Source: a virus
DNA length: 64,000 bases
Strand: one strand, 5' to 3'
Virus record (IMG/VR): IMGVR_UViG_3300045988_123611
Shown: positions 9,586 through 17,466 of the stretch, in pieces
Numbering within the stretch: the stretch's first letter is position 1
How the letters are laid out: each line of letters opens with the position of its first letter
Position numbers and translations under genes: made by a program
Notes under the pieces: model-generated
Told to the model about the DNA's origin: nothing
Databases searched by the model: none
The model's input: the letters and a program-made list of their open reading frames with translations, nothing else

Positions 9586-10848
9586 TTACATATGTTCAGC
9601 TAATGCCGCAATTTTAGAACGATGAATTTGTTTTAATTCAATTTCACCATATACATCTGATCCTCTAAATACTTTAGAAGCACGACGCATACCATTATTG
9701 GCTCCAGCAAAAGCAATATCATCAACTTGGGTTTTATCATCGCCATCAATGATACAAATACCATCTTCACCAATACGCTGCAAGGTCAATTTCATAAGCG
9801 AAATATCCATATTTTGTGCTTCAGAAATATAAATACCTGCTTTCATTCCAGTAGTATCATAACCACGGATATCGCTTAATGGTAAAAGAACTAATTGTTC
9901 ATTTTCAATCATGCGTTCAACAGCTAAGCGACCACCAAATTTACTAATTAAAAGATTGCCAATTTGGCTATCAAGTAATTTTTCATCTCGAGTGCCAGGA
10001 TAAAAACCTAATTTTGCAGAATTTTTAGTGGCAATCGTATTACAAAATACAATGATTTTATCAATACGTCCACGTTCAAATTGATTCATTAAGAAGGCTA
10101 AACTTAAATAAGTTTTACCTGAACCCGCAGGACCACGAACCATAGTAATAGTATTATTAATAAGACTATCTGCGAATAAAGCTTGATAAGGGTCATCTTT
10201 CATAGGTTTTACTTTTCCAAATTGAGTAGAATCAAAATTACCAAATGAAATAGGACGATAACCATCACCAGTATAACATACTTTATCAACGATATTATTA
10301 TCTTTATCTTTTATAATTAAATATTCATTAATATGTAAATTATAAACATTTTCGTATTGGTTAGAATAGAAATCAGCCATTTCCGCGTTTGACATTGTAA
10401 TTTCTACATATCCCTTATACTCATCAATTAATTCTTCATCTATGCTTTGAATATGATCTTTGTCAAAGAAAAGATTTGCCATTGCTTTTAATGATAAATC
10501 ATTAGTGATAAATATAGTATTTGGATGGGCTAATTTAAATTCAATTGCGGTAGATAAAATTTTACTATCATCAGTAATTGGAAGGTTAGAATCTTCAATT
10601 ATTTTTAATCCATCTAATTTAAATAGTTGGATAATATAATTATCAGGGTTTTCATTCAATTTATGTAATACTTTACGAGCTGAATATTTAACATCAGCAT
10701 CTTTATTTGATGATGTTTTTATATTTTCTAATTCTTTTAAGGTAATAGAAGATATAATAGGTGTATATTCTTCCTCTTGGAGAAATGTATCAACCGCCAT
10801 CAGCAAACTACAAGTATCATAAAATTTATACATCTTCGTACTCATCAT
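9586..10848 (-). CDS. phoH: PhoH-like ATPase with N-terminal PIN domain (YlaK-like)
   Basis: Walker A GPAGSGKTYLSLA, PhoH core, PIN-like N-terminus. TAG-free. Confidence 0.7.
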   Translation of the reverse strand: MMSTKMYKFYDTCSLLMAVDTFLQEEEYTPIISSITLKELENIKTSSNKDADVKYSARKVLHKLNENPDNYIIQLFKLDGLKIIEDSNLPITDDSKILSTAIEFKLAHPNTIFITNDLSLKAMANLFFDKDHIQSIDEELIDEYKGYVEITMSNAEMADFYSNQYENVYNLHINEYLIIKDKDNNIVDKVCYTGDGYRPISFGNFDSTQFGKVKPMKDDPYQALFADSLINNTITMVRGPAGSGKTYLSLAFLMNQFERGRIDKIIVFCNTIATKNSAKLGFYPGTRDEKLLDSQIGNLLISKFGGRLAVERMIENEQLVLLPLSDIRGYDTTGMKAGIYISEAQNMDISLMKLTLQRIGEDGICIIDGDDKTQVDDIAFAGANNGMRRASKVFRGSDVYGEIELKQIHRSKIAALAEHM

Positions 10849-11076
10849 CTTCTTCCTCTTCTATGTTTGGTATAGCAAATCCGACTGTATGAACTGAAGT
10901 TTTTGTATCGGTTGCTAATTTTTCGATTTGGGAATTATACTCTGCTATTTTTAGAGTTAATTTTCCCTTTACCAATTCGAGAAAAGTTGTCAATAAACTA
11001 ACTAAACTATCTCCTATTGGGTATAAAAATGCGATAAATATTATTCCGAATATAAATGTTAAAATAAATATTCACC
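10832..11076 (-). CDS. small membrane protein (start uncertain: ATG…TGA-ATA configuration)
   Basis: Frame MLRGKIFKSLMKG-TGA-IFILTFIFGIIFIAFLYPIGDSL...EEEEDDEYEDV(TAA). Only upstream ATG is followed 13 codons later by in-frame TGA. Confidence 0.35.
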
Positions 11077-11139
11077 CTTTCATTAGGGATTTGAAGATTT
11101 TACCTCTTAACATTTATAAAAATTTATATATTTTTATTT

Positions 11140-11577
11140 TTAATTCTTGGCCTCATTACGATGTTTACGAATACTTTGGTAAAATTTATCTTTTTCTTTT
11201 ATGATATAATTTAATTCTTCTTTAGCATTTTTAATAGAGTCATTTACATATTCAATGTCTTCTTGTTTTTGGCGGATTTGTCGTTGAAGCATTTTATTTT
11301 CATAAGATCTAGGATTAAAATATTTGCTTCTATTCATTGAATAATATAATTGATTTAAAGCTCCAAGTTGAATTTTTAATTCTTTTTTGTATGCTTGTAA
11401 AACTTTGATATAAGCTCTTCTATAAGCAAAATTACATCCAGTTTTCTCATTTGCCATATCCATATCATCAGGATGACATTTAGCGATACCATAAATAATA
11501 TTACCATCTTTGTCTTCAATTAAACAAGAAGCTTCGCCTGATTCAGGATTATAACTAAATAAAGGTTCTTTTTTCAA
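11140..11577 (-). CDS. hypothetical coiled-coil protein
   Basis: 145-aa ORF. Confidence 0.4.
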   Translation of the reverse strand: MKKEPLFSYNPESGEASCLIEDKDGNIIYGIAKCHPDDMDMANEKTGCNFAYRRAYIKVLQAYKKELKIQLGALNQLYYSMNRSKYFNPRSYENKMLQRQIRQKQEDIEYVNDSIKNAKEELNYIIKEKDKFYQSIRKHRNEAKN

Positions 11578-11640
11578 AGTAGTAGAACTCCTTTCTATCT
11601 ATTTCTATAAATATATTAACATAAAAATTATTAAAAAGCA

Positions 11641-11688
11641 AAAAAATAAAGGCGAAAGTGTAATACTTTCGCCTTTATTTTAATTCAA
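11641..11688 (-). terminator. rho-independent terminator after rSAM operon
   Basis: Stem AAAGGCGAAAG/CTTTCGCCTTT flanked by A/T runs. Confidence 0.5.
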
Positions 11689-16093: not shown

Positions 16094-16119
16094 AAATAAT
16101 TCTCCTTATTTATTTAATT

Positions 16120-16383
16120 TTAAATTTTATACTTATATTTGAATAATGCTTCAATAGCATCATCAATCGAATTATAATATCCATTATGTTCAAATTCTCC
16201 ATCTTCATCCCATAAGAAAGAGATTTCTACACCTAATGGACCTTGTTCCAATTTTTCTTTTACTTCTTTGTAAATTGCTTCTTCCATTTGTCTTGTTATT
16301 AATTTTTCCCAATCTTCATAGGACATTTTTCCAGTAATGAGTTTTTTTGTTAAATCATTACCTTTATAATCATAAAGTGCCAT
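16120..16383 (-). CDS. hypothetical protein
   Basis: 87-aa ORF. Confidence 0.35.
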   Translation of the reverse strand: MALYDYKGNDLTKKLITGKMSYEDWEKLITRQMEEAIYKEVKEKLEQGPLGVEISFLWDEDGEFEHNGYYNSIDDAIEALFKYKYKI

Positions 16384-16393
16384 TTAGTTTTCC

Positions 16394-16954
16394 TCATTCA
16401 TCAAGAAATGATTTACATTCCTCAACTTTGGCTTTCATAGCATCAATGATTATATCAAGATTAATTGGATAGCCATGATGAGAGTCAACACCTACATGAT
16501 ACATATAAGGTCGATCTTCAAAGAAGTTAGTGGTTTGATGAGTATGACCGTAAAGATTCAAAGTCATTTGATGAAGATTTTCTCTTTCAAGATTACCAGT
16601 CATACAAGGAAAATGGGTCATAAAGAAATGGTATTTACGATAATTTAGCATAATCGCCCAATCCATTTCAACAACATTAGGCAAATCAGCATAAAGTTTC
16701 TGTCGAGTTGCCGTATCATGGTTGCCAAATACAATATGGAATTTACCCTTGAGACGTTTAATATATTCAATATTAGAAGGGTCTCCAAGCATTAAATCAC
16801 CAAGAATATAAACATCATCTTCATCAGAAACGATGCTATTCCATTTCTCAACATAATCTTCATTCATTCCTTCAATTGAAGAATAACCACGAGCTTTCCA
16901 AATAAATTCTCGATCATGTCCAAAGTGCATATCACTGGTTAAAAAGATTGCCAT
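16394..16954 (-). CDS. Calcineurin-like metallophosphoesterase (candidate 3'-phosphatase partner of polynucleotide kinase)
   Basis: DMHFGH...GDLMLGD...GNHD motifs; overlaps the upstream kinase gene. Confidence 0.55.
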   Translation of the reverse strand: MAIFLTSDMHFGHDREFIWKARGYSSIEGMNEDYVEKWNSIVSDEDDVYILGDLMLGDPSNIEYIKRLKGKFHIVFGNHDTATRQKLYADLPNVVEMDWAIMLNYRKYHFFMTHFPCMTGNLERENLHQMTLNLYGHTHQTTNFFEDRPYMYHVGVDSHHGYPINLDIIIDAMKAKVEECKSFLDE

Positions 16955-17466
16955 GTATGAATCACTTCTCCTTTTTCGTTAACCTCTTGGATAAGGTTAT
17001 ATTTAACATATTCTTTAAAAGTGGGAGGAGTAAAAGAATTTGCCATACTCCGAATCACTTCTTCTGGAACCTGCGCTCGACCATCACGCTGTTTATTGCG
17101 CTCAACACAAACTTCAACAGGAACATTAAAATAAATAACATTCACATTAAGATTTGCATATCCTTTTGCGTTAATTGCTTTAAGAAGCTTCTTGCGAGAG
17201 CCGGGTCCAAGATGCGTGGCATCCACATATACATTATCATAATCTCTTAAAGAAAGAGTAATTGCTTCAACAAAAGCATGCCATACACTTTCCTCTTTGG
17301 CAAAATAGCTTTCATCATCATTTAACATTTGAAAACGGAGAGCATCACGAGAAACAACACAACCGCATTGAGGCCAACGATTTTTAAGCCAAGTGGATTT
17401 ACCCGAGCCGAGACTAAGGAATACCAGACATAATCCAAAGATTCTTTCTAGTATTCATTTAATCAT
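16939..17466 (-). CDS. pnk: Polynucleotide 5'-kinase (T4 Pnk kinase-domain homologue)
   Basis: Walker A LSLGSGKSTW; VIYFNVPVEVCVERNKQRDGRAQVPEEVIRSM aligns to the T4 Pnk kinase domain. Only ATG (17464-66) is followed by in-frame TGA at codon 4 (M I K TGA I L E R...); one in-frame TAG earlier in the frame. Confidence 0.55.

Follow-up and report, generated by a model that had tools for sequence, protein, structure and literature searches.

The DNA analyzed here, called the window below, is the 64,000-nt stretch of the viral record IMGVR_UViG_3300045988_123611, and all coordinates are positions in the whole window. It has a GC content of about 32%, and nearly all of its genes lie on the minus strand. 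Our subject is a locus at which a gene for a polynucleotide kinase (pnk) carries an HNH homing-endonuclease element within its active-site motif, together with a second gene, encoding a small membrane protein, whose start is likewise irregular. Among the approximately 70 open reading frames (ORFs) with a positive coding score, that of pnk is the only one with a long start-less leader (42 codons). An earlier note on this DNA had observed that in both genes an ATG is followed by TGA and ATA, and had proposed that the conserved protein begins directly thereafter. The pnk locus contains the following features.

17998..18273, minus strand: gene X, encoding a small zinc-ribbon protein.
18016..18053, minus strand: stranded parental pnk 5' end (ATG AAG CAA AAG AAT CTT TGG ATT ATG TCC GGA ATA CC), upstream of the HNH gene.
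17410..18015, minus strand: mobile element of 606 nt, in place of 1 nt of the parental CCA GGC, delimited against 11 HNH-less and 8 element-bearing contigs.
17459..17941, minus strand: HNH homing-endonuclease gene, 160 aa, with two in-frame TAG codons and the stop TAA at 17461..17459 (PHROG HNH endonuclease, E 1e-28).
17410..17467, minus strand: RNA hairpin formed by the last 58 nt of the element, -20.3 kcal/mol.
17452..17466, minus strand: the ATG ATT AAA TGA ATA of the earlier note, the ATG lying in the 3' end of the HNH gene and the TGA-ATA being ATG AAT ACT read off-frame.
17417..17458, minus strand: element-borne pnk N-terminus in frame A, ATG AAT ACT AGA AAG AAT CTT TGG ATT ATG TCT GGT ATT CCT, encoding MNTRKNLWIMSGIP.
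17410..17416, minus strand: 7-nt insert TAGTCTC, which separates the Pro codon of the Walker A motif from the following Gly codon and brings first an in-frame TAG and then a +1 shift downstream.
16939..17409, minus strand: pnk body in frame B, from GGC TCG GGT AAA (GSGK) to the stop (AAA_33, polynucleotide kinase).

A search of viral contigs for relatives of the kinase gave 14 loci, to which further contigs (L047-L051) were added later. Eleven HNH-less contigs (L003-L013, L051) contain neither the HNH gene nor the 7-nt insert, and their pnk start is read in one frame as MKQKNLWIMSGIPGSGKST (ATG AAG CAA AAG AAT CTT TGG ATT ATG TCC GGA ATA CCA GGC TCG GGT AAA), overlapping the 3' end of gene X by about 50 nt. 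The conserved N-terminus of the family is MKQKNLWIMSGIP, database homologues begin MKQKNLW[IL][ML]SG[IV]P[GA]SGKST, and the P-loop G-x-P-[GA]-x-GKS is found in 118 of 120 homologues. The intact cassette is present in eight contigs (the window, L001, L002, L014, L047, L048, L049, and L050), and one further contig, L015, carries a decayed derivative. Contigs with and without the HNH gene are 90-98% identical.

The element interrupts the Walker A motif GIPGSGKST precisely at the boundary of its Pro and Gly codons, with its left junction after 18016 and its right boundary at 17410 (CCT, TAGTCTC, GGC). It brings a new tail for gene X, the HNH gene, a new Shine-Dalgarno sequence and ATG with the first 14 pnk codons recoded, and the 7-nt insert. 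The last five codons and the stop of gene X (SFGKT*, 18015..17998) are supplied by the element and form a C-terminal extension, where the parent ends in RLG*. The HNH protein reaches 19.9 bits against the Pfam HNH profile, slightly below the cut-off. Directly 3' of the HNH stop, the ATG at 17458, preceded at 8 nt by the Shine-Dalgarno sequence AGAAAGGGG, opens the frame-A conserved stretch (KNLWIMSGIP). The element-borne N-terminus begins MNTRK, continues NLWIMSGIP and, compared with the parental copy, has four substitutions, all of them synonymous; a 31-nt direct repeat with 90% identity lies at 18015-18045 and 17417-17447. As encoded, the Walker A motif ([AG]x4GK[ST], here G[LIV]P[GA]SGKS) is interrupted by the insert and becomes canonical only if the 7 nt are skipped. 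We hold this architecture with high confidence. The old pnk Shine-Dalgarno sequence and ATG persist upstream of the HNH gene as a 22-codon ORF, MKQKNLWIMSGIPLLAKPNNHY (18053..17987, minus strand), which overlaps the end of gene X. A group I intron or other known RNA near the HNH gene was also considered; Rfam gave no match in 10700..18400 except two weak terminator-like matches at 11.6 kb, which are explained by an intrinsic-terminator-like hairpin 3' of a radical SAM gene (11640..11690).

Judged from these alignments, the element behaves as a mobile unit. The nearest HNH-less allele is a different one for each element-bearing pnk body, and in L047 the left junction, the gene X tail and the N-terminal half of the HNH protein all differ while the right end is identical. 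An allele with the new N-terminus and no insert, or with an insert of another length, was not found among the related contigs. Other insertion sites of the same HNH family were uninformative, the members found being distant relatives in unrelated phages. The HNH-less alleles L003-L013 are unusually variable right at the insertion site (GGA ATA CCA GGC, GGG GTT CCA GGC, GGA GTG CCA GCA, TGC GGA GTG), perhaps a sign of escape from HNH cleavage. Some relatives have a GIY-YIG endonuclease gene inserted between pnk and the phosphoesterase gene (L015 3220..3387; also L007 and L010), with an altered pnk C-terminus (TWQSHV); the pnk neighborhood is a homing-endonuclease hot spot.

The earlier note had also offered indels as an explanation for both genes. 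Among its three options this is the one that a comparison of related genomes bears out: insertions of 7 nt in pnk and 1 nt in the membrane gene are present and are conserved across independent contigs. A sequencing or assembly artefact at both loci, which had been raised as an a priori possibility, has in consequence a negligible probability: the same insert occurs in nine contigs and the same extra A in 14, from independent samples and assemblers.

The bases of pnk are as the earlier note gave them, namely ATG (17466..17464), ATT, AAA, TGA (17457..17455), and ATA (17454..17452), with GSGKST about 15 codons further on. It took the conserved protein to begin right after the TGA, which on its model could come about by read-through of UGA from ATG 17466 (MIKW-ILERIFGLCLVFLSLGSGKST) or by initiation at AUA 17454, the membrane protein arising by a similar read-through of ATG AAA GGG UGA. 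The family N-terminus is found instead in the other frame, from ATG 17458. Against the Pfam profile AAA_33, the frame-A N-terminus with 7 nt skipped scores 82.6 bits and the product of a +1 shift 73.2 bits, both over profile positions 1-143; the frame from ATG 17466, with the predicted junction peptide IFGLCLVFLSLGSGK, scores 70.8 bits with a match from profile position 9, and a start at Met47 scores 47.3 bits with a match from position 43. Read from ATG 17466, the frame-B N-terminus does not fit the family profile and misses the homologous beta-1 strand, the upstream MIK is the tail of the HNH protein, and the ATG has a Shine-Dalgarno spacing of 0 nt. In L014 the overlapping HNH stop is TGA in place of TAA, and therefore TGA acts as a stop in this clade. 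Some observations point the other way: the decayed allele L015 opens exactly this ORF by a 12-nt deletion that removes the TGA, and the replaced region is hydrophobic in the downstream frame (LCLVFLS). Selection for a hydrophobic frame-B strand was considered as the cause of the four T substitutions in this region and was dropped, codon usage alone giving P ~0.15. Overall, UGA read-through or AUA initiation in pnk, with its counterpart in the membrane gene, is improbable. The TGA-ATA shared by the two genes is a coincidence, an off-frame view of [A/G]TG AAT A and not a recoding signal; in pnk it arises when GAT GAT TAA ATG AAT ACT is read as ATG ATT AAA TGA ATA.

The genetic code of the phage bears on both the TGA and the insert's TAG. 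That TGA is not a general sense codon, as had been noted, is borne out: in 22 ORFs (9,963 codons) there are 123 TGG and four TGA, all four of them terminal stops. TGA terminates many long ORFs, no internal in-frame TGA occurs in the strongly coding ORFs of the window, the window holds no tRNA(UCA), and none of the relatives compared has TGG at either TGA site. With these findings and the exchange of TAA and TGA at the HNH stop, TGA as a sense codon was rejected, neither a code 4-like reading of TGA as Trp nor a programmed UGA read-through is supported, and the features of gut phages with code 4 (TGA=Trp) are absent from the window. In four genes TGA is followed by an immediate back-up stop (TGA TAA three times, TGA TGA once), at 36534 (ORF from 37160), 27530 (from 27766), 26657 (from 27451), and 22957 (from 24378); this hints at leaky TGA termination in the host and is a point for UGA read-through.

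Two features that the earlier note had missed are that TAG is a sense codon and that a matching tRNA is present:

57237..57326, minus strand: suppressor tRNA with the anticodon CUA.

In-frame TAG occurs one to eight times per ORF in many strongly coding ORFs, and at sites where relatives differ, TAG is exchanged with CAA or CAG more often than in any other way (36 of 84 codon substitutions). An exchange of TAG with CAA or CAG is known code 15 behavior of gut phages (bioRxiv 10.1101/2021.08.26.457843; PMC9523058), which the window resembles in its in-frame TAG, its tRNA(CUA), and this exchange. With all features tested (in-frame TAG, tRNA(CUA), alignment with Gln codons) found in the window, we read TAG as Gln, that is code 15, on the strength of sequence. 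The tRNA(CUA), 90 nt in length, has a variable region of about 20 nt, and its CCA end is not encoded; its similarity to the other tRNAs of the window gave no clear aminoacylation identity, though TAG aligns with Gln codons. The window belongs to a lineage of AT-rich gut phages of roughly 160-195 kb, in which TAG is decoded as Gln and TGA and TAA serve as stops. The contigs of its relatives are 110-196 kb long and come from gut metagenomes; a megablast search of 50,697 phage records for annotated close relatives gave no match to 10500..17800. Two related contigs are binned in metagenome-assembled genomes labeled Mollicutes and Clostridium, which is weak evidence for the host. One of them, L050 (CAMELE010000001.1, a 164 kb contig), is an element-bearing phage copy in a bin named 'uncultured Mollicutes bacterium', a host hint or a binning artefact that is of relevance since some Mollicutes read TGA as Trp.

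On this basis we propose that ribosomes start at ATG 17458, make MNTRKNLWIMSGIP and then meet the UAG of the insert, with the remainder of the kinase (PHROG, E 5e-25) in the +1 frame. Production of the full-length kinase would then need recoding at the shifty stop CCU-UAG-U, where a stop that would be slow to decode lies directly 3' of a candidate shift-prone P-site codon and the pnk body continues in +1. The simplest route would be a +1 shift yielding ...GIP-SL-GSGKST, with the predicted junction peptide NLWIMSGIPSLGSGK; if UAG were suppressed instead, frame A would abort shortly after, with the predicted peptide NLWIMSGIPQSR. The CCT-TAG-T is invariant in all nine insert-bearing alleles (the eight intact ones and L015), which come from different samples and collections. 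Insert variants are TAGTCTT and TAGTTTC, and changes in or beside the insert are limited to CTC GGC -> CTT GGT in L002 and L048 and CTC -> TTC in L015. The L002/L048 changes are synonymous in the downstream (+1) frame and non-synonymous in frame A, in what is a small sample of substitutions; because of this the shift would be located at or before CTC. By analogy with the 50-nt gap of T4 MobA, the 7-nt insert may protect the element from cutting its own target. The shift could be favored early, while little phage tRNA(CUA) has accumulated and UAG is decoded slowly, and be quenched late, when the TAG-containing HNH gene becomes translatable; this early and late timing of kinase and HNH gene is conjectural.

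Several other routes to a kinase were tried and rejected. A shift at GGG-TAA-A, after TAG has been read as Gln, is ruled out by L002, L014, and L048, in which this TAA is CAA. The P-loop or the beta-1 strand is missing from the products of a hop from GGT to GGC (matched Gly codons) or from TCT to TCG (matched Ser codons), and likewise if the entire hairpin is bypassed between the HNH GGG and GGC. A split-protein model is ruled out, the downstream frame having no start before Met47.

The element ends in a hairpin that spans the HNH stop, the new pnk start and the insert. It has a z-score of -4.06, with none of 200 shuffles as stable, and ranks among 62-nt windows of the 64 kb in the top 1.1% overall and in the top 0.4% when matched for GC. 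In the lower stem 17467..17459 pairs with 17417..17410, so that the HNH stop UAA lies opposite the UAG of the insert and the U of CCU is also paired; in the upper stem 17456..17447 (GAAUACUAGA, new codons 1-4) pairs with 17428..17419 (UCUGGUAUUC, Ser-Gly-Ile-Pro), and the G of the start codon faces the first C of CCU. All alleles with an intact cassette keep the hairpin (-19.2 to -20.3 kcal/mol), and the parental region is at background (-7.4 to -9.2). Three of three substitutions in the stems retain pairing as G-U and one other falls in an internal loop, too few for a claim of covariation.

The hairpin also bears on a less likely route, a precise 7-nt hop, in which the peptidyl-tRNA(Pro) would leave CCU at the UAG, re-pair at CUC or CUU and resume at GGC, the mRNA slide perhaps being pulled by the hairpin re-forming behind the ribosome. 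Such a hop would restore GIPGSGKST, with the predicted junction peptide NLWIMSGIPGSGK, and is the only route to a canonical Walker A motif, with the 82.6 bits given above and a fit to the motif of the 118 homologues. It is further favored by the stop after the take-off codon, as in gene 60, by the element-specific hairpin and by a reported latitude in P-site re-pairing. Against it stand the lack of a mini Shine-Dalgarno sequence and the inefficiency of short stop-hops in E. coli (PMC5009743), and we give the hop only a slim chance.

The element resembles known systems of bacteriophage T4. In the MobA element an HNH gene is accompanied by a C-terminal extension, by a new N-terminus together with its homologous replacement region and by a stop-initiated gap that blocks self-cleavage (bioRxiv 10.1101/2022.08.31.505936), and in the gap of T4 gene 60 a stop follows right after the take-off codon and the gap ends the element (PMC5009743). 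As in these systems, the HNH gene lies inside a highly conserved coding stretch and near-identical relatives lack it; the upstream ORF receives a new tail, and the downstream ORF gains a new start followed by a recoded version of the sequence that was displaced; right behind the last decoded codon comes a stop in frame, usually UAG, as the first codon of a short, non-coding, frame-breaking insert, and the element ends at or just after the insert. RNA structure in the region of the insert is stronger than in parental alleles, and decayed endonuclease copies exist. The differences are considerable. The target here is pnk and not a topoisomerase gene, the host lineage is an AT-rich, TAG-recoded gut phage in which UAG would be sense late in the cycle, and the upstream ORF is a separate, overlapping gene, whereas in T4 it is the N-terminal half of the same protein. 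The insert measures 7 nt as compared with 20-50 nt, no landing codon matches the take-off codon (no CCN downstream, and the GGU/GGC pairs truncate the P-loop), the mini Shine-Dalgarno sequence of those systems has no counterpart, and the hairpin has another geometry, its 5' arm containing the start codon and its 3' arm the take-off site. Bypass and immunity are in the present case predictions from sequence. Since target gene and insert length differ, common descent with the MobA/gene 60 gap is not assumed.

A +1 shift at a Pro codon followed by a stop is known as well, at CCC_UGA in the tsh gene of Listeria phages (PSA/A118/A500) and in E. coli pheL (PMC5009743). Further shifty stops are CUU_UGA in prfB and UCC_UGA in antizyme. 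The pnk locus shares with these the Pro codon directly before an in-frame stop, an ORF that continues in +1, a site invariant in all alleles, and a phage setting with Firmicutes-like use of Shine-Dalgarno sequences. It differs in that the codon is CCU and not CCC, the +1 re-pairing of CCU with CUU requiring a G-U pair at the middle position; in that the stop is UAG and not UGA, with no Shine-Dalgarno-like stimulator found 5' of it; and in that the shift would correct an insert and not yield a second product or autoregulation. By analogy, the pnk locus may work like the gene 60 bypass or like a shifty-stop frameshift, being a member of neither; it lacks the matched codons, a defining feature of the former. 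Seen through the same analogy, the cassette is a MobA-like variant with a miniature frame-breaking insert, in another gene and another phage lineage.

The main competing explanation is that the HNH element and its insert simply inactivate pnk. The 14-codon ORF would then be a dead leader, insert and hairpin would serve the element only (self-immunity, 3' stability or translational control of the HNH mRNA), and intact-looking pnk bodies would persist as the element keeps entering fresh functional alleles. All routes except the unmatched 7-nt hop break the motif that is invariant in 118 of 120 homologues, the pnk bodies are interleaved with HNH-less alleles, and L015 shows the HNH gene and pnk both decaying. 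It is also general knowledge that the pnk of T4 is dispensable in many hosts. A mere disruption accounts poorly for a well-spaced Shine-Dalgarno sequence and ATG with an N-terminal copy whose four differences are all synonymous, for an in-frame stop directly after the Pro codon (a rough chance of about 5%), and for the lack of nonsense or frameshift mutations in all eight element-bearing pnk bodies. In L015 the HNH gene is truncated and the hairpin is gone. One 12-nt deletion takes out the frame-A ATG together with the frame-B TGA and so opens the frame from ATG 17466 (protein P0001), and two more 12-nt deletions are present; through one of them the strand preceding the conserved DATH is lost. 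The three deletions, all multiples of three, speak against disruption; in this single contig they could be repair or decay. The ratio dN/dS on the pnk bodies was dropped as a test of function, the bodies being recombinant with HNH-less alleles. We regard disruption of pnk as possible, if rather doubtful.

Recoding at CCU-UAG faces several difficulties of its own. There is no matched landing codon, and CCU must re-pair with CUC or CUU; the +1 product adds two residues to the conserved P-loop and violates the Walker A consensus [AG]x4GK[ST]; and CCT-TAG is also an ordinary sense context in the radical SAM gene. With the suppressor tRNA present, the UAG should be read, and frame A ends four codons later. 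The intact look of the pnk bodies may stem from HNH-less alleles, by recent transfer or recombination, the sole decayed allele, L015, has solved the frame break in another way, and the recoding step is itself argued from comparison of sequences and from analogy. In view of both sides, we put some recoding at CCU-UAG, by a +1 shift or a hop, at close to an even chance. For the explanation as a whole, which joins the HNH cassette and recoding at CCU-UAG to an AUU/AUA start of the membrane gene, the chance falls a little short of even. A more far-reaching version is tentative and on balance unlikely: that the locus is a second, independently evolved cassette of homing endonuclease and translational recoding, in which the switch of UAG from stop to Gln gates the kinase, made early and aborted late, with the HNH gene and its two TAG codons regulated in the opposite sense.

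To our knowledge, the T4 gene 60/MobA cassette is so far the only homing endonuclease with a frame-breaking insert that ribosomes skip. If the recoding is real, the pnk locus would be a second instance and 'immunity insert plus recoding' a general strategy of selfish elements, here with another target gene, phage group, host type, and insert size, and short enough for easy dissection. It would also be a first link between the reassignment of stop codons in gut phages and programmed frameshifting. If it is not, what is left is nonetheless a clean case of a homing endonuclease whose target is an active-site motif and whose insertion costs the phage a host-range gene. For those annotating recoded phages, what looks like TGA read-through or a missing start codon can be a mobile-element junction read off-frame.

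The second gene of the earlier note presents a different case, with the following features.

10826..11071, minus strand: ORF of a small membrane protein of about 80 aa, with the candidate starts ATT (11065..11063) and ATA (11071..11069), its frame borne out by synonymous substitutions.
11072..11083, minus strand: mini-ORF ATG AAA GGG TGA with the Shine-Dalgarno-like GAAAGGGTGA and one extra A (11072/11071).
11098..11101, minus strand: A4/A5 length polymorphism among close relatives.

In a profile-free search the protein fell into a family with at least 296 members, about 80 aa long and without a named function. The bases had again been described correctly, with ATG 11113, or ATG 11083 followed by AAA GGG, then TGA (11074..11072), ATA (11071..11069), and a hydrophobic segment. 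Because the A4/A5 polymorphism shifts ATG 11113 in most close relatives, this upstream ATG is not in the conserved frame. The surroundings of ATG AAA GGG TGA ATA are identical in all 13 close relatives, and the extra A is found in all 14 members of the window's clade. Distant relatives (L019-L028, 80% protein identity) have one A fewer and read GAAAGG GTG ATA TTT ATT, with the GTG in frame with the membrane segment and the mini-ORF out of frame; for this reason the N-terminus 'MKGW' implied by read-through is not conserved, and the proteins P0121-P0123, in which it appears, come from the same DNA called with code 4. The N-terminal length that MKGW would give does lie within the range of the family.

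Directly after the ATT four of four substitutions are synonymous, which places the translation start at or before 11062. The phage's own Shine-Dalgarno spacing is 5-11 nt as a norm. Measured from GAAAGGGTGA, the GTG of the relatives lies at 0 nt and ATA at 0-4 nt, which is too close, and ATT at 5-6 nt; ATA and ATT are conserved in three clades. We therefore consider it probable that the gene initiates at AUU or AUA; non-AUG initiation, which the earlier note had raised for AUA, is plausible for this gene only. Translation would begin at the conserved in-frame AUU (or AUA) about 6 nt behind the extended Shine-Dalgarno sequence GAAAGGGUGA (GGGUGA), and the indel would lie in an untranslated spacer. 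AUU and AUA starts with an extended Shine-Dalgarno sequence work in Firmicutes at about 10% of AUG (PMC13009471). The locus resembles the known non-AUG systems (AUU/AUA of infC, AUU of S. aureus cvfC1, AUA of ccpN) in the strong Shine-Dalgarno sequence close to the start, in the conserved AUA/AUU and in the absence of a usable canonical start in the clade. It differs in that the start here is a prediction, and in that distant relatives keep an in-frame GTG abutting the Shine-Dalgarno sequence. N-terminal length was tried as a discriminator of starts among 149 family members and failed, the conserved Gly falling at 7, 9, 10, and 13 for AUU, AUA, GTG, and MKGW, all inside the observed range of 7-13. 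Family N-termini thus do not favor AUU/AUA, and the modal Gly position of 10, which fits the GTG of the relatives that was lost in the window's clade, weighs against such a start. Read-through or re-initiation after the mini-ORF is an appreciably weaker alternative, and a non-functional gene a weaker one still.

Between and around these two genes lie others of interest. The kinase (17458..16939), a phosphoesterase (16954..16394), and an RNA-ligase-like gene (24342..22957), the last judged by its sequence, form an RNA repair-like set, which suggests that the kinase matters only in hosts with tRNA-cleaving defenses. A Cys-rich repeat protein (14011..13304, minus strand; CSGSCSGGCVGCSASCR[TH]DC twice, two in-frame TAG codons) is encoded directly upstream of the radical SAM gene (12972..11680, minus strand; three in-frame TAG codons), and the two look like a phage-borne peptide-maturation (RiPP-like) pair. 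An SPFH/Band_7 (flotillin-like) gene at 16093..14708 (minus strand) contains no TAG; relatives (L015) have it too. A recent acquisition is possible, the GC content being 37% in 14001-16000 as compared with 27-32% on either side.

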